Shown one piece after another: positions 3,458-35,607 of a DNA stretch of 64,000 nucleotides (positions are counted from its first letter, which is position 1; every line of letters begins with the position of its first letter). The position numbers and the translations under genes are program-made. Source of the DNA: a virus; IMG/VR virus record IMGVR_UViG_3300050020_000061; one strand, 5' to 3'. The notes under the pieces were generated by a model. That model made no database searches. It was not told the origin of the DNA and was given only the letters and a program-made list of their open reading frames with translations.

Positions 3458-3702
3458 CACGCCCACCCCTTGTAGAGGATCGTCACGTCGTGGACGGGGC
3501 ACATGCCGAGGTAGTTGTCACCCCTGCTCGGGGGGCAGGTGCAGCGCACCGTGGCGTCCCCCGTGAGGGGAGGCTTGACGTACGGTGTCCAGCGCCACGG
3601 GACCTCCATGGGAGCCGTGCTGGTTCCCGTCGTGTTCACGGGGCAGCGATGCTCGTTCCCCTGCCACCACGTCCCGCAGTCGGGACACTTCAACACCGCC
3701 AT
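3457..3702 (-). CDS. Cys-rich small protein (zinc-ribbon-like)
   Basis: MAVLKCPDCGTWWQGNEHRCP...RCTCPP...CPVH. Coupled to the terminase stop. Confidence 0.55.
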   Translation of the reverse strand: MAVLKCPDCGTWWQGNEHRCPVNTTGTSTAPMEVPWRWTPYVKPPLTGDATVRCTCPPSRGDNYLGMCPVHDVTILYKGWA

Positions 3703-5186
3703 CAGGCTGCTCTCACTTTCAGACTGCCGAAGAAGAACTCCTGACCACCGAGATCCATCGAGTACCCGAGGGCGTCCACGAAATCGTCGTGGCCCTTGGG
3801 GAAGGAGAGCAGCTCGACCTCGAACGCCGAGCCCTTGAGGGAGGAGTGCAGGAAGACCTTGTGGGCCTCGAACTTCGCAGCCACCGCTCGTGCTCGGGTC
3901 GTCTTGTCGACGTCCGCCTTCTTGCCCTCGATGGGGATCTTGGGGTAGGTCTCCATGACCTCTTGGATCAGGGTCGACTGGAACTGGTTGCTCTCGACGA
4001 TCACGATGCTGATGTTCGGGTAGGCCATCCAGCCGTCGTGGATGAACTCCGTGTGGTGCGACTCGCGCTTGTCGCGGTAAGCCGAGAGCACGTAGAAGTC
4101 GCCGGTATCGAGGTTCTCGGCAGTGATTACTCGAGCGGTGAAGTCAGCTCTCTCCCGAACAGAGGAGGCGAGGTCAACTCCCATCCGAAGGAGCCATCTC
4201 CCCGGAGGAAGGACGTCGAAGTGGGTGAAGGGCCCGTGGAAGATGTTGCCCTCGAGGAGCCCGCTGATGTCGTTCTGGTAGGCGCAGGAGAAGAGCGGAG
4301 AGCCCATCTCGTCCTTCTCCTTGAGCAGTCGATCAACCGACCAGTACTCAGGCCAGTACGAGACGAGCCTCCCATCAGGACCCTCCGTGAGCGCCGACAC
4401 GACGTGACTCCGCCAGCCCATCCCGCCATCGGCGAGCGGCTTCATGAAGATCTCGTACAGGTCTTCCTCGCCCCACCGCGTTCCGATGGCGACCACCACC
4501 CCGTCAGGGGAGAGGCACGGCTTGAGGGTCTTCTTGAACCACGTCTCGACCTGTTCCCGCTGGTCGACGCTCTGGGTGTTCTCCTCGTCGAGGATGTCGT
4601 CCATCAGGATCAGGTCGAGGCGCTTGCTGATGATCGCGCCGCCAACGCCGACGGCGAACATCGTGACGTCCTTGGAGATATGCCAGCGCGAGCCAGCGAC
4701 GAGCCATTCCTTGTCCGTCCACTTCGACGGTGAGGGCCTGCTGTCAGGGAAAACCTCGCGGTGGAGGGGGTTCGCTTCGACCGTGTACTTGATGGCTCGG
4801 GAGAAGTCCTTGGCCTGCGTGTCGGTGTTGGAGACCATCGCGATACGGAGATCGGGGTACTTCCCCACCAGCCAACTGCACAGGATGGTGTTGTCCCACG
4901 TCGTCTTCGCCCCGCCTCGCGGAAGCAGGTAGACCTCGTTCTCGCGGCGGTACATCGCGTCGAGGGTCTCGGCGACCATCTTGCGGTGGTGGGCCGAGGG
5001 AACGTACCCGAAGACGAACTCGCCGTAGGCGAAAACCGCCTCTGGCCCGTCAGTTCTTGCGAGGGCTACCAATGCGTGGGAGCGGAGACTCCCCAGTGTC
5101 TCCGGGGACCAGCCCGCGAGTTGCTTCAACAATGCCGCGAAGAACGTCGGGTCCGAGGGATCCGACGGCTGTGAGGGTGACTCCAA
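3702..5186 (-). CDS. terminase large subunit
   Basis: Walker A-like LLPRGGAKTTW, Walker B-like LDLILMDDILDEE, and a C-terminal RNaseH-like nuclease region. TTG start at 5186 follows GAGGAG. It overlaps the small-subunit gene by 137 nt. Confidence 0.85.
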   Translation of the reverse strand: MESPSQPSDPSDPTFFAALLKQLAGWSPETLGSLRSHALVALARTDGPEAVFAYGEFVFGYVPSAHHRKMVAETLDAMYRRENEVYLLPRGGAKTTWDNTILCSWLVGKYPDLRIAMVSNTDTQAKDFSRAIKYTVEANPLHREVFPDSRPSPSKWTDKEWLVAGSRWHISKDVTMFAVGVGGAIISKRLDLILMDDILDEENTQSVDQREQVETWFKKTLKPCLSPDGVVVAIGTRWGEEDLYEIFMKPLADGGMGWRSHVVSALTEGPDGRLVSYWPEYWSVDRLLKEKDEMGSPLFSCAYQNDISGLLEGNIFHGPFTHFDVLPPGRWLLRMGVDLASSVRERADFTARVITAENLDTGDFYVLSAYRDKRESHHTEFIHDGWMAYPNISIVIVESNQFQSTLIQEVMETYPKIPIEGKKADVDKTTRARAVAAKFEAHKVFLHSSLKGSAFEVELLSFPKGHDDFVDALGYSMDLGGQEFFFGSLKVRAA

Positions 5187-17995: not shown

Positions 17996-18430
17996 ATGGG
18001 TGTCATGAAGCGCACCTGCCGGTTCTGCGGCACCAATGACCAAGCCGCGTTCTACGACCCCACCACCACATCTGGCATTGCCGCCGGTCATTGCTGCCGA
18101 TCCTGCTGGGTCGAGAAGAGCGTGGAGTGGCGGCGAACGCATCGAGACCAATGGAACCGGAAGCGCCATCGCACGATGACCATCAGGAAGTTGGGCATCG
18201 ACGGCGAGACGTACGACGCGCTCATGGTCGAGGCTAGGTGCGCCGCCTGCGGAGCCACGGAGGGTCAGGTCAGGAACGGCAAGCCGTCCCGGCTGGTCAT
18301 AGACCACGACCACGCTACAGGCCGCATCCGGGGCATCCTCTGCCACTCCTGCAACTTGGCTCTAGCCAACGCCAACGACGACCCGGCCATCCTTCGGGGG
18401 CTGATCGTCTATCTCGATACGTGCTTCTGA
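17996..18430 (+). CDS. Endonuclease VII-family (HNH-type) homing endonuclease (alternative start ATG 18005)
   Basis: CAACGATEGQVRNGKPSRLVIDHDHATGRIRGILCHSCNLALANANDD is the Endo VII signature (C-x2-C ... DHDH-x-tG-x-iRG-x-LC-x2-CN). TACAAT at 17992-17997 lies only 7 nt before ATG 18005, so the transcript may be leaderless. Confidence 0.8.
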   Translation: MGVMKRTCRFCGTNDQAAFYDPTTTSGIAAGHCCRSCWVEKSVEWRRTHRDQWNRKRHRTMTIRKLGIDGETYDALMVEARCAACGATEGQVRNGKPSRLVIDHDHATGRIRGILCHSCNLALANANDDPAILRGLIVYLDTCF

Positions 18431-30807: not shown

Positions 30808-30836
30808 AACACCCCGTTTCTTTAGAAACGGGTGTT
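30808..30836 (+). terminator. stem-loop after the helicase gene (one bulged C; no U-tract)
   Basis: AACACCCCGTTTC-ttta-GAAACGGGTGTT. Confidence 0.4.
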
Positions 30837-30873
30837 GTACACATCCACAAGGCCCGAGTGGAGGGAGTTTGAA

Positions 30874-31347
30874 ATGAAGGAGAGGATCGCTCCTTCGACC
30901 AGAGACGAAGTCCTGAGGCGGGACGGGTTCCGGTGTCAGGCTCCGATCCTCGACCCCGGTGCTGGTCCGTGCCGCGATGCCTTCGGCAGCGTCCTCGTCG
31001 GAGCCCGCTTCTGGCGGGACCCCGGCCCGCTGTACCTGCAGATGTCCCACACCAAGCCACGCGGCGAGCTGTCGATGCAGAAGAAGGCAACGTCCATCCC
31101 CGCCCACCTCATCACGCTCTGCCCCGGTCATCACACCGGGACGGAGGCAGGATCCAACTGGGAGGCAGTCCACAGGGAGGTGATCCGCGACCATCTGGAG
31201 AGTCTTACAATGTTGGCAACATTGAGCCACGAGCACCGTGTCCGCGAGGATCTCGAACGGGGCGGCGCGATGGATGCGTCGTGCCTCGACTGCGGCAAGG
31301 AGGTCTGGCGCTCGGGGTTCGGGCTGCTCGGACCATGGCGAACGTAG
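30874..31347 (+). CDS. HNH endonuclease
   Basis: I trimmed the start to ATG 30874 after GGAGGGAG. STRDEVLRRDGFRCQ ... HLITLCPGHHTG. Confidence 0.65.
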   Translation: MKERIAPSTRDEVLRRDGFRCQAPILDPGAGPCRDAFGSVLVGARFWRDPGPLYLQMSHTKPRGELSMQKKATSIPAHLITLCPGHHTGTEAGSNWEAVHREVIRDHLESLTMLATLSHEHRVREDLERGGAMDASCLDCGKEVWRSGFGLLGPWRT

Positions 31348-31357
31348 AGGAGACCAG

Positions 31358-31927
31358 ATGACAAACGTGTTCCTGTTGGGTCGCAAGCTACCGGCTGGCG
31401 ATTTCGAGGGCGACGACTTCACCCCCGGCGCTACGGGCTGGGTCACCTGCACTGACACCGCCCTCGGCAGGATGATCGCCTACGCAACTAACGGGAGAGT
31501 GGACAGGGACGGCAGGGTCTACAGAGCAGCGGTCCACCCTCACGACGTCGACGGCATCACCCTCGCGCAGGCGGCGGTCGCGTCCATGGCCGTCGCCGGT
31601 CTCCAGCTCACCCGTCCCATGTGGCACTGGGACGACGTCCTGAAGTGGTTGACGGCCCGCAACGGCCTCATCGTGCAGGGCTGGTACGGGGACATCCCCC
31701 GCGACTATCGCTACCAGAAGGACCCCTCGAACTTCGGCCACGCGATGTGGATCTCGCACTTCTCCTCGACCAGTGGCATGCGGGTCTGGGATCCGTTGGA
31801 TGCCAACACCACCCACCACGGCCAGTGGATCCCCGCGAAGTACATCCGCGCCTACATGGAGCATCTCCAGCAGCAGCAGGGCTCAGGCGTCCTGTTCTGT
31901 GGCTACGTGCCACTCCAGAAGCTGTGA
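31358..31927 (+). CDS. hypothetical protein, possible papain-fold Cys peptidase/amidase
   Basis: I trimmed the start to ATG 31358. Candidate Cys (WVTCTDTALG), His (FGHAMWISH) and Asp (VWDPLD) are in the order expected for NlpC/P60- or C39-like folds. Weak call. Confidence 0.3.
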   Translation: MTNVFLLGRKLPAGDFEGDDFTPGATGWVTCTDTALGRMIAYATNGRVDRDGRVYRAAVHPHDVDGITLAQAAVASMAVAGLQLTRPMWHWDDVLKWLTARNGLIVQGWYGDIPRDYRYQKDPSNFGHAMWISHFSSTSGMRVWDPLDANTTHHGQWIPAKYIRAYMEHLQQQQGSGVLFCGYVPLQKL

Positions 31928-32253
31928 GCGGAAACGCTCGCTTCCTCGAGCTGCTCGAGGAGGTCAAGGCTGTTCATGTTGGGAAGGCGGCGGGCTACGC
32001 CGGATCTGAGAACCCCGACACGTGGACCAACTTCCGTGAGGCCCTCGCGTGGGGCTCGACCCCGCTGCAGGGCTGCCTCATCCGCATGGGCGACAAGTAC
32101 CGTCGGGTCCAGAACCTGCGCCGCAACCCGGCCAACGATCAGGTCGGCGAGTCGATCAAGGACACCCTGATGGGCCTCGCCAACTATGCGATAATAAGCG
32201 TATGCTTGCTAGAGGAAGAGGAGCTTGAGCGCCAAGGGGGAGCCAAGGGCTAA
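31924..32253 (+). CDS. DUF1599-like (nucleotide-modification-associated) protein; its 3' end was replaced by the Endo VII cassette
   Basis: GTG 31924 in a GTGA overlap. KAAGYAGSENPDTWTNF...IRMGDKYRRVQNL...ESIKDTLMGLANYA resembles DUF1599. The last codons are AT-rich (ata ata agc gta tgc ttg cta). Confidence 0.45.
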   Translation: MSGNARFLELLEEVKAVHVGKAAGYAGSENPDTWTNFREALAWGSTPLQGCLIRMGDKYRRVQNLRRNPANDQVGESIKDTLMGLANYAIISVCLLEEEELERQGGAKG

Positions 32254-32713
32254 GCCCCTGTGCGAGCACGGCCTGCTTCGTACCTACTGCCGAGATTGCC
32301 AGAATGCCTACGCGAGAGCGTACGGCGCTAGATACCCGGAGCGGCGCAGGCAAATCTCGCGTGACGCGAAGGCGCGTCTCCGTGCGACCCCGGAGGGTCG
32401 AGAGGTACTGCGGGCTACTCATCGTCGTTGGTGGCACAAGAGAGGCAGTTACGCACGGTACGGATTGACAGACGCTGGCTTCAAGCAGTTGCTGGAGGCC
32501 CAAGACGGTCGGTGCGCTATCTGCCGCGTGCCGTTCGAGGAAGAGCGTGTTCGGATCCACATCGACCACGACCCGAAGGAGGTCAGGGTGGGCTGGCGTC
32601 TCGCTACCAAGCCCAGAGGGCTGTTGTGCTTCAGTTGCAATGTCGGGCTGGGCAAGTTCGGGGACGACCCCGAGCGACTGGCCCGCGCTATCGAGTACCT
32701 GCGCGAGCCGCCC
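32185..32713 (+). mobile_element. Endo VII homing-endonuclease cassette inserted in the 3' end of the DUF1599-like gene (529-nt offset between duplicated target copies)
   Basis: YAIISVCLLEEE (32185-32220, AT-rich codons) is repeated as YALIAVCLLEEE (32714-32749, GC-rich codons). The downstream RusA start is coupled to the second copy's stop. Confidence 0.6.
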
Positions 32714-32761
32714 TACGCCCTCATCGCGGTCTGCCTGCTGGAGGAAGAGCAGGCACAGTGA
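32225..32761 (+). CDS. Endonuclease VII-family homing endonuclease, fused in frame to the relic 3' end of the DUF1599-like gene
   Basis: TTG 32225 after GAGGAG. DGRCAICRVPFEEERVRIHIDHDPKEVRVGWRLATKPRGLLCFSCNVGLGKFGDD. Confidence 0.75.
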   Translation: MSAKGEPRAKPLCEHGLLRTYCRDCQNAYARAYGARYPERRRQISRDAKARLRATPEGREVLRATHRRWWHKRGSYARYGLTDAGFKQLLEAQDGRCAICRVPFEEERVRIHIDHDPKEVRVGWRLATKPRGLLCFSCNVGLGKFGDDPERLARAIEYLREPPYALIAVCLLEEEQAQ

Positions 32762-33129
32762 GCTGGACCGTCGTCATCCCCGGCCAGCCCGTCAGTGGGA
32801 ACCACGCCAACAAGATCGGGCGCGGCTACCGGGCGGGAGGGATCAGCTTCCCGAAGATGGTGAAGACGCCCGAGGCCGAGGCGTACATGCAGGGCGCGGC
32901 GATGCTGACGAGGCTCGCCCGCCCATCCGGCTGGAAGTGGAACGGGGGGCAGGTGGTCTGCGAGTACCGCTTCTACCTGACCCACGACATCGACTGCACC
33001 AACATGTTCAAGGTCATCGAGGACAGCATCTTTCCGGCACTGGGCATCGACGACAAGTGGGCCCTGCCGCGAGCCATGAGCAAGGAGTTGGTGAAGACCA
33101 ACCCTCGCGTGGAGGTGACAATCGCGTGA
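32758..33129 (+). CDS. rusA: RusA-family Holliday junction resolvase
   Basis: GTG 32758 in a GTGA overlap. VVIPGQPVSGNHANK ... DIDCTNMFKVIEDSIFPALGIDDKW (the D-x-DN-x-K-x-i-x-D pattern). Confidence 0.7.
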   Translation: MSWTVVIPGQPVSGNHANKIGRGYRAGGISFPKMVKTPEAEAYMQGAAMLTRLARPSGWKWNGGQVVCEYRFYLTHDIDCTNMFKVIEDSIFPALGIDDKWALPRAMSKELVKTNPRVEVTIA

Positions 33130-33425
33130 GCAAGGACTACCGCGACATCCAAACGAAGTACGAAGAATGGAGAGCCACGCACGACGGTCATGTGGTCTAC
33201 GACGCCGTCCGCGATGCCGCTCTCCGCATCCGTGATCGTGGCTTCAGCCACTACGGGATCGCAGCTCTCTGGGAGGCGGCGAGGTACACCTACTGGCTCA
33301 AGGTGGGTCCAGATGCCGAGGGCTGGAAGGTCAACAACAACTGGCGCAGCAGGATGGCCCGCGAGCTGATGCTGAAGGAGCCCGAGCTGAAGGATTTCTT
33401 CGAGCTTCGCGAGCTTCGGGCATGA
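33126..33425 (+). CDS. hypothetical protein (99 aa)
   Basis: GTG 33126 in a GTGA overlap. Confidence 0.5.
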   Translation: MSKDYRDIQTKYEEWRATHDGHVVYDAVRDAALRIRDRGFSHYGIAALWEAARYTYWLKVGPDAEGWKVNNNWRSRMARELMLKEPELKDFFELRELRA

Positions 33426-33982
33426 CCCGCCGCATCGTCGTCCCCTGCAACCCAGAGGGGACACCCTACCGTCGCCACCGCTGGCAGTGGCGGGACGTCT
33501 ACGGGGATCCCGAGCATCCCGTCAAGGACCGCTGGTGCGAACGCTGCGGGAACTGGTGGCTCGACGTTCTCGAGGACGTCATCCTGCCAACCAACACCAC
33601 CGCCGAGTTCACGCTGGCCGAGGGCACGGCCGAGTCCTTCGAGCCCCTCGACAACGGCCTCCCGGGGTTCCGGCTGGCTGGCATGCGAGACGTGCAGGGG
33701 ACCTTCGAGGGGAAGCTCAACGACGGAGCGTTCGCCGCGATGAACCCCGGCCCCATCGAGGTCTTCCTCTACGGCCCCGCCATCCTCCCGTGGTGGAAGC
33801 ACTGGTTCTACCGCCTGCGGGAGAACCTCAGGGGCACTCCCTATCCATCAGTCCTGATCGCCAAGGGCCCCGCCACCTTCAACATCGAGTCAGAGGTCGA
33901 CGACGGAGGCGACGTCGTGATCTCAGGTACGTTCACCAAGACAGGCAAGTGGTCCATCGACAAGGAGGTCAACACCAAGTGA
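33422..33982 (+). CDS. hypothetical protein with a C-terminal region resembling the two tail-tube proteins
   Basis: GMRDVQGTFEGKLNDG vs GLRDVSGTFAGILDV and GLKDISGTFAGLLDV. ISGTFTKTGKW vs TTGNFKAAGAW. The N-terminus has a Cys/Trp-rich extension (CNPEG...CERCGNWW). Confidence 0.5.
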   Translation: MTRRIVVPCNPEGTPYRRHRWQWRDVYGDPEHPVKDRWCERCGNWWLDVLEDVILPTNTTAEFTLAEGTAESFEPLDNGLPGFRLAGMRDVQGTFEGKLNDGAFAAMNPGPIEVFLYGPAILPWWKHWFYRLRENLRGTPYPSVLIAKGPATFNIESEVDDGGDVVISGTFTKTGKWSIDKEVNTK

Positions 33983-34322: not shown

Positions 34323-34517
34323 ATGCTCCGCTACTTCGTCACCTTCCCGGCTGGGGTCCGCATCCCGCGTGAACAGTTCGAGATGTTCGCCATGTACCTC
34401 AAGGACGCGGCGAACGCTCGGGAGTGGAAGGACATCGTGACGAGCGAGGGAGCGATCCTCCACGACGTCCGCCACCCCCGGGTGAAGCCCAAGTTCAACC
34501 AGATGCCCGTACGATGA
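34323..34517 (+). CDS. hypothetical small protein (64 aa)
   Basis: I trimmed the start to ATG 34323. Confidence 0.45.
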   Translation: MLRYFVTFPAGVRIPREQFEMFAMYLKDAANAREWKDIVTSEGAILHDVRHPRVKPKFNQMPVR

Positions 34518-34981
34518 AGATCGTGATCGCTGGCTCCCGCAAGCTGCCTGAGGGCAAGGCCCCGTTCATGTTGATCAGGTTCCTCGGGGCCCTGCCGGAT
34601 GATGCGGTCGTCATGCTCCGCTGCCCCTACACGGAGGGCAGGTTGCCGGGGGCCTTCGAGAAGGACGTCGACGCCCTGTGCGATGCCCTCAACATCCCGG
34701 TCGAGTGGCACGCCCCCGAGCCCACGATCCTCAACCCCGGCAGGGCATCCGTCTACATCCGCGACATCGACATGGTCGCCAAGGCTGACCTCGTCCTCCT
34801 GTTCTTCACGACAGAGGACGCCCTCTACGGCTACAGCGGCACCACCCACCTGCAGGACAAGGCCCTCGACCAGAACATCCCGATGTATGCCTACCGGGTC
34901 GAGAACGACGGCCGCGTCGAGCGGGTGGGAGAGCACGACCCCGAGAACGCCTTCGGGGATCTGGTGCCAGCAGCCTCTTGA
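34514..34981 (+). CDS. SLOG-fold / DUF2493-like protein
   Basis: MKIVIAGSRKL start and ...YIRDIDMVAKADLVLLFF resemble the DUF2493 (YspA-type SLOG) pattern. Motif-level call only. Confidence 0.45.
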   Translation: MKIVIAGSRKLPEGKAPFMLIRFLGALPDDAVVMLRCPYTEGRLPGAFEKDVDALCDALNIPVEWHAPEPTILNPGRASVYIRDIDMVAKADLVLLFFTTEDALYGYSGTTHLQDKALDQNIPMYAYRVENDGRVERVGEHDPENAFGDLVPAAS

Positions 34982-35361: not shown

Positions 35362-35438
35362 GCCGAGGTGATGCAACTGGCAGACATCGGGTCCTCAAAC
35401 CTCCCGTCATGCGAGTTCGAGTCTCGCTCTCGGCACCA
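35362..35438 (+). tRNA. tRNA-like gene with a canonical acceptor, D- and T-arm but a weak anticodon stem; the loop reads CU-CAA-AC
   Basis: GCCGAGG/TCTCGGC acceptor (one G-U), T-arm GCGAG-TTCGAGT-CTCGC, A73, encoded CCA. The anticodon stem has only 3 Watson-Crick pairs plus U-U and C-C. There is no long variable arm, although CAA would be a Leu anticodon. Confidence 0.5.
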
Positions 35439-35440
35439 CC

Positions 35441-35515
35441 GCCAAGGAAGCTCAATGGACGAGCAACCGGCTTCTAACCGGCAGGCTGCGGGTTCGACCC
35501 CCGCCCTTGGCACCA
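35441..35515 (+). tRNA. tRNA-Arg(UCU)
   Basis: Full cloverleaf folded by hand: GCCAAGG/CCTTGGC acceptor, GCTC/GAGC D-stem, ACCGG-CTTCTAA-CCGGC anticodon arm, GCGGG-TTCGACC-CCCGC T-arm, A73, CCA. Confidence 0.8.
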
Positions 35516-35607
35516 TTCAGGGGCGCTACCGGCCAGAGAGGACGCTCACTGCTCAGCCCCGGTACTGGCTGTAGTTTGTCAGCCCGCCCCACACAGAAGA
35601 AGGAACC

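Follow-up and report, generated by a model that had tools for sequence, protein, structure and literature searches.

In the 64,000-nt stretch of viral DNA analyzed here (the window), a 529-nt unit on the plus strand, from 32185 to 32713, is best explained as a free-standing cassette that encodes a homing endonuclease and replaces the end of its target gene. Sequence comparison places the probability of this reading at about 0.8. The cassette shows presence/absence polymorphism at one fixed site within a DUF1599 gene, and its history is independent of that of its host gene. A homing cassette had been proposed in a sequence-only reading of the same DNA, and relatives now support that proposal through their empty sites, the native character of the downstream copy of the gene end and the separate history of the cassette.

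Organization of the locus

The interrupted gene is a hybrid DUF1599 gene of 109 aa (31924 to 32253, plus strand), recognized from the ORF list, from PF07659 (E 2.4e-6 in Pfam, covering residues 55–93) and from relatives. It consists of a native 5' part (31924 to 32184, plus strand), defined by identity to relatives and dS and the proposed left homology arm, joined to a cassette-borne end. The insertion point is residue 88 and the PF07659 match extends to residue 93, so the insertion lies inside the conserved DUF1599 domain and its last helix has been replaced.

The inserted unit, which is missing in L172, L175, L176, L082 and L083, begins with 13 replacement C-terminal codons (32185 to 32223, plus strand) that are rare and AT-rich. 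Their GC content is 0.44 against 0.65 for the whole window, and their GC3 is 0.54 where the genome mean is 0.84. The purine-rich Glu codons at 32212 to 32223 (plus strand), as read from the sequence, resemble a Shine-Dalgarno site 5' of the nuclease start. Past the replacement codons, the hybrid frame crosses the beginning of the nuclease gene and terminates with a stop codon at 32251–32253, which gives the hybrid protein nine or ten terminal residues as a by-product. This stop of the host gene, a length of 529 nt that is not a multiple of three and an Rfam search of the region, which returned no intron or other family at E ≤ 1, led to rejection of a group I intron or intein.

The Endo VII-motif nuclease ORF (32225 to 32761, plus strand; 178 aa) was identified by PF02945 (E 7.5e-20) and by alignment to T4 Endo VII. 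It begins inside the replacement end, has no stop of its own and runs into the displaced native end. Its catalytic and zinc motif (32513 to 32641, plus strand) was placed by alignment to PDB 1e7d/2qnf and by columns that are invariant in alignment A1. The original 3' end of DUF1599 (32714 to 32761, plus strand) forms the in-frame tail of the nuclease and is the proposed right homology arm. A RusA Holliday-junction resolvase gene follows (32758 to 33129, plus strand; PF05866), and its GTG start overlaps the TGA stop of the nuclease ORF, the coupling that the sequence-only reading had described.

Two versions of one gene end

The upstream copy of the gene end, YAIISVCLLEEE at 32185–32220, lies in the DUF1599 gene, and the downstream copy, YALIAVCLLEEE at 32714–32749, lies in the nuclease ORF. 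A repeat search of the window gives a spacing of exactly 529 nt. The copies have 10 of 12 residues and 25 of 36 bases in common, and all 11 base differences fall in the first 27 bases. Since both copies start with TA, the cassette borders may move by about 2 nt. The upstream copy is written in codons that the genes of the window rarely use: ATA makes up 1.2% of Ile codons, GTA 3.7% of Val, CTA and TTG 2.0% and 5.1% of Leu, and TAT 9% of Tyr, percentages that are approximate because the gene set was picked with a GC3 filter. The duplicate peptide claimed at the outset is therefore real, with its upstream copy in rare AT-rich codons. Furthermore, the replacement codons stay in the DUF1599 frame, and the three cassette lineages, although they differ here by synonymous changes, encode the same peptide, in agreement with the claim that the cassette copy restores the C-terminus of the host gene.

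Empty sites identify the native copy

A megablast search with 31200–33500 against 50,697 phage records gave no match, and protein-level matches were only distant. Metagenome collections, from which all informative relatives come, contain a family of contigs of about 77 kb with the gene order of the window. Four independent relatives (L172, L175/L176, L082 and L083) have no nuclease ORF and a single uninterrupted DUF1599 gene. The DUF1599 proteins of L172 and L175/L176 belong to the same 90%-identity cluster as the window protein, and those of L082 and L083 are 82% identical to it. At the empty site, the base left of the insertion point runs straight into the equivalent of window position 32714, and the DNA matches the downstream copy at 35–36 of 36 bases, versus 25 of 36 for the upstream copy. 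This match indicates that the downstream GC-rich copy is the resident original end and that the AT-rich copy arrived with the cassette. Removing 32185–32713 (529 nt) from the window yields an in-frame gene again, ending at the RusA overlap. The alignment to insert-free relatives suggested by the sequence-only reading thus recovers the uninterrupted allele, which equals the downstream copy, and bears out the view that the original 3' end survives as an in-frame endonuclease tail.

The two-copy arrangement is found in independent assemblies from JGI, ENA, NCBI and IMG/VR: L001, L177, L178/L179 (the same phage, identical up to position 2346 and counted once), L180, L181 and L182, which is identical to the window and adds no comparison. 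Every two-copy relative has an Endo VII ORF; two copies without an endonuclease, an arrangement singled out beforehand as evidence against homing, were seen in none of them.

Two of the empty-site genomes carry a small duplication of their own. A short internal repeat of Leu-Leu-Glu-Glu-Glu codons, with two AT-rich codons between the units, is present at L082:2200–2260 and L083:2920–2990, and its second unit matches the native end found in L001. Slippage could have produced this repeat by duplication, or it may be what remains of a lost cassette. The DUF1599 frame of L082 continues without a stop into the next gene.

The cassette and its flanks have separate histories

Cassettes 99.8–100% identical to that of the window occur in L001, L180, L181 and L182, and identity this high is found between genomes whose flanks differ (dS 0.12–0.38). 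The two other cassette lineages, L177 and L178, are 84.5–86% identical to it, and their divergence exceeds that of the flanks. In its native 5' part, DUF1599 shows 91–96% identity to relatives with and without the cassette, with a dS of 0.18 against L001 and 0.12 against L180.

Only one genome pair, the window and L001, delimits both edges of the shared tract. Positions 32175–32737 contain 1 mismatch in 563 nt, while the 261 nt just upstream contain 13 and RusA is 84% identical; at the upstream rate, about 28 mismatches would be expected in the 563 nt (Poisson P ~2e-11). Likewise, dS is 0 over 119 synonymous sites in the nuclease versus 0.18 and 0.38 in the flanks. At mismatch 32174, all other relatives have the alternative base, so that the change seems to be peculiar to the window lineage; taken as such, it would place the left edge of the tract within 32146–32184. 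On the right, the base at the polymorphic position 32738 goes with the backbone rather than with the cassette, which confines the edge to 32714–32737. Against L180, the left edge of the identity tract lies at the same place in a third DUF1599 background. The pattern is that of one recent exchange that reached no more than a few tens of bases beyond the cassette on either side.

Trees of the backbone agree. In the RusA tree, cassette-bearing L001 groups with empty-site genomes (support 99/100), and in the tree of the AAA_25 (helicase-like) gene, cassette-bearing L181 does so as well (99/99). The opposite discordance appears between the window and L177, where the cassette has a dS of 0.66 and the DUF1599 5' parts a dS of 0.19. 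A cassette younger than its flanks in L001 and older than its flank in L177, together with the backbone trees, shows a history separate from that of the host gene.

Other patches of high identity between the window and L001 lie within DNA that is 84–89% identical, at 34511–34981 (98.3%) and at 35362–35517 (99.4%), the latter in a tRNA region. These patches show that ordinary mosaic recombination is at work here as well.

The Endo VII-motif nuclease

The nuclease start at 32225 is TTG in the window and GTG at the same position in L177/L178. Alignment to T4 Endo VII, which is confined to T4 residues 14–68 and nuclease residues 88–145, shows C97, C100, D114, H115, R131, C135, C138 and N139 to be present, so that the zinc cysteines, Asp40, His41, Arg54 and Asn62 of the T4 enzyme are all conserved. 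The equivalent of His43 is Pro117 in all three cassette lineages and is followed by an 8-residue insertion. His43 is catalytically important in T4 Endo VII, and most members of the family have it, though some do not (Fang et al. 2018, PMC6083498). This substitution, as seen in the alignment, is the chief caveat on predicted nuclease activity.

Three observations nonetheless favor a putatively active enzyme: purifying selection, the position of the motif and the adjoining resolvase. The ORF is intact in three lineages differing by dS 0.5–0.66, with dN/dS of 0.11–0.16, which indicates that it is kept by selection. The motif occupies residues 97–139 of 178, in the C-terminal half, a location that goes with the endonuclease clade and not with resolvases (Fang et al. 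2018, PMC6083498), and a separate resolvase, RusA, is encoded next door. A resolvase of the T4 Endo VII type was considered for the cassette protein and rejected, given the lack of full-length similarity, the missing dimerization domain and the neighboring RusA. The N-terminal 80 residues of the nuclease have no Pfam match.

The C-terminus is unusual. Homologues in alignment A1 end a few residues past a conserved A..YL motif. In the window, the frame goes on from the A..YL region into the displaced native end. The junction is identical in all three cassette lineages, with never a stop before it, so every copy of the nuclease ends in the DUF1599 C-terminal helix. A speculative and rather improbable extension is that this tail lets the nuclease dock where DUF1599 docks, on a partner protein or on DUF1599 itself; if that were true, cutting would be coupled to the nucleotide-modification/replication machinery, or the nuclease would be regulated. 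The perfect nucleotide conservation of the native remnant across cassette lineages was at one point considered as selection on a homology arm, a reading that was dropped because strong codon bias explains much of it.

A proposed model for homing and self-protection

In the proposed mechanism, the nuclease would be translated from its TTG or GTG start behind the Shine-Dalgarno-like Glu-codon site. During mixed infection, it would cut cassette-free DUF1599 alleles at or near the equivalent of 32184|32185 (L172:3261|3262). The break would then be repaired from a cassette-bearing genome, homology being provided on the left by the 5' part of DUF1599 and on the right, over a short arm, by the displaced native end. 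The recipient would thereby gain the replacement end and the nuclease gene, and its own old end would move downstream. The carrier would be immune at both junctions: at the left junction, the 27 bases on its right-hand side carry 11 changes, and at the right junction, the left half of the site is replaced by the 3' end of the nuclease's own gene.

The model bears on where the recognition site lies. The sequence-only reading had proposed a target of the 32714–32761 type as cleavage substrate. The native downstream copy is intact in every cassette-bearing genome, and the site can therefore not lie wholly inside this segment but must include bases left of the junction. On this sequence argument, a substrate limited to 32714–32761 would probably not be cut. 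The same logic explains why the replacement end has to differ: were it identical to the native end, the complete site would be restored at the left junction. Within the 18 nt to the right of this junction, the three cassette lineages share seven fixed base differences, and A or T is retained as the third base of four or five of their first six replacement codons. The target is closely predictable as a sequence spanning L172:3261|3262, with the seven fixed differences as candidate immunity determinants.

Alternative explanations and the origin of the replacement end

The cassette might be a passive passenger that entered by one illegitimate recombination event and then spread by general homologous recombination, its Endo VII-like protein serving the phage in repair, packaging or resolution without cutting at the DUF1599 site. 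The other near-identical mosaic patches between the window and L001 and the missing second catalytic His fit this account. It is nevertheless unlikely, because the identity tract matches the cassette edges to about 40 nt on the left and 24–35 nt on the right, the nuclease gene is missing from close relatives, and a resolvase is already supplied by RusA. In addition, a right-hand exchange arm of only 24–35 nt is easier to understand under break-induced repair. Another objection, that the junctions are an assembly chimera or sequencing artefact, arises from the origin of the window in an uncultured-phage assembly. It retains almost no credibility: recurrence in independent assemblies refutes it, as the same junctions are shared by at least seven contigs, which come from different samples and were built by different pipelines, and there are three diverged cassette lineages.

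With the homing cassette as the preferred reading, the source of its replacement end can be considered. Among 95 clusters of DUF1599 homologues, C-termini of the downstream-copy type are the most frequent, and one natural subgroup resembles the cassette copy in its third-position Ile and its run of four Glu; Ser at the fifth position is also natural among the homologues. These natural Ile/four-Glu alleles and the lower GC3 of the nuclease gene (0.75 versus a mean of 0.84 around it) make it more likely that the replacement end was captured as a foreign DUF1599 allele from a differently composed phage than that it was rewritten in place. The sequence-only description of a recoded duplicate accordingly holds in that the copy is diverged and AT-rich, and gives way in its notion of rewriting. 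A duplication in place at nuclease insertion, with the upstream copy later drifting or being selected away and no foreign allele involved, would account for the identical terminal Glu codons of the two copies. It would also suit the search for a donor lineage with the exact end, in which no fetched locus had the nuclease directly downstream of a native DUF1599 end. Drift to codons of 1–5% frequency is improbable in a genome with a GC3 of 0.84, however, and the occurrence of the same Ile substitution and four-Glu run in other lineages and the lower GC3 of the nuclease gene itself also speak against it, leaving duplication in place very improbable.

Other nuclease genes and further observations

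A second gene with the Endo VII motif is present in the window at 18002–18430 (plus strand; PF02945, E 8.6e-17). Its product shares 32% identity with the cassette nuclease, possesses the full Asp-His-Asp-His motif and may be either another homing endonuclease or a housekeeping nuclease of the phage. In relatives of the window phage, the region from the AAA_25 helicase-like gene to RusA is a nuclease hot spot, with extra Endo VII-domain and HNH_3 genes, one with a helix-turn-helix tail, at positions that vary between relatives (L177:1691–2131 and 3534–3905; L178:1583–2020; L181:74–487 and 2498–2938). A 171-aa ORF without a Pfam match lies 3' of the helicase-like gene in the window (30832–31347, plus strand); L001 has a shorter ORF instead, and the stretch 31233–31347 gives no alignment between the two genomes. 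Finally, a Chloroflexia MAG contig encodes an Endo VII-like ORF directly upstream of a DUF1599 gene (L162:2769–2984). This DUF1599 gene is 52% identical to that of the window, and the contig thus has a related nuclease placed differently beside the same gene family.

Comparison with known homing systems

The proposed mode of spread resembles the intronless homing of the T4 seg and mob genes, in which a free-standing nuclease cuts a nuclease-free allele and its gene is copied in during repair. In the T4 mobA/gene 60 cassette, extra sequence keeps the interrupted host gene working and immune, its function being preserved by ribosomal bypass. The cassette described here likewise carries extra sequence that keeps its host gene working. 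It differs in that the T4 genes mostly lie between genes and that mobA relies on bypass and brings no substitute gene end. T4 endonuclease VII itself (gp49; PDB 1e7d, 2qnf) has the same His-Me finger and zinc site, but its motif is N-terminal where that of the cassette protein is C-terminal, and its dimerization domain has no counterpart here.

Endo VII-motif (DHHRN) nucleases are an established family of phage homing endonucleases that includes F-CphI (Fang et al. 2018, PMC6083498). The cassette nuclease is likened to these enzymes by motif and arrangement: it retains the Asp, Arg, Asn and first His residues together with the zinc cysteines, an N-terminal extension precedes the motif, which sits in the C-terminal half, and the phage encodes another resolvase. 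The second His of the motif, however, is Pro117 in the cassette nuclease. F-CphI, furthermore, adjoins the intron-containing psbA and brings no replacement gene end.

The closest parallels in design come from fungi. In the WHO elements at FBA1 of Torulaspora and Lachancea, the 3' end of FBA1 is replaced by a resistant version (Coughlan et al. 2020, PMC7282813), and experiments showed allele-specific cleavage a short way upstream of where the displaced fragment begins (PMC7282813). Both systems combine a nuclease gene with an upstream replacement 3' end of the target, which in WHO confers resistance, and both displace the old 3' end downstream, where it serves as a homology arm in WHO and is proposed to do so here. 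In each, the host gene's 5' part has a history at odds with that of its 3' part. Despite these likenesses, the WHO nuclease is LAGLIDADG/intein-derived and not of the Endo VII type, and WHO resides in the nuclear genome of a eukaryote, where homing takes place in meiosis, whereas the present cassette is found in a phage. WHO swaps hundreds of bases where the cassette swaps only 13 codons, and only here is the displaced end translated as a nuclease tail.

Mobile endonuclease ORFs (mORFs) of fungal mitochondria similarly create gene hybrids, in atp6 of Allomyces macrogynus and in atp6, atp9, cox2 and nad3 of Glomus sp. (Beaudet et al. 2013, PMC3630166). As in the cassette, a foreign C-terminus is inserted in phase with the host gene and followed by an endonuclease ORF, and the native C-terminus is left downstream, nearer to relatives than the inserted copy. 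In contrast to the cassette, mORF nucleases are LAGLIDADG or GIY-YIG, the genomes are those of organelles and the duplicated segments are much longer. Keyword searches of the open-access literature, which were not exhaustive, found no published phage case with a substitute gene end. The design of gene-end replacement is already known from yeast WHO elements and fungal mitochondrial mORFs. The present case stands out by its nuclease family, by how short the replacement is, by translation of the native tail and by an unusually complete set of filled and empty relatives.

Implications

For annotators, the tails of the DUF1599 and nuclease ORFs are to be taken as products of the insertion and not as native protein features. 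The locus is a compact, cleanly delimited natural example, with filled and empty sites and three diverged cassette lineages, which makes the specificity of an Endo VII-motif nuclease directly testable. The case adds to the evidence that gene-end replacement, described in yeast and in fungal mitochondria, also occurs in phages, here in an uncultured high-GC phage.
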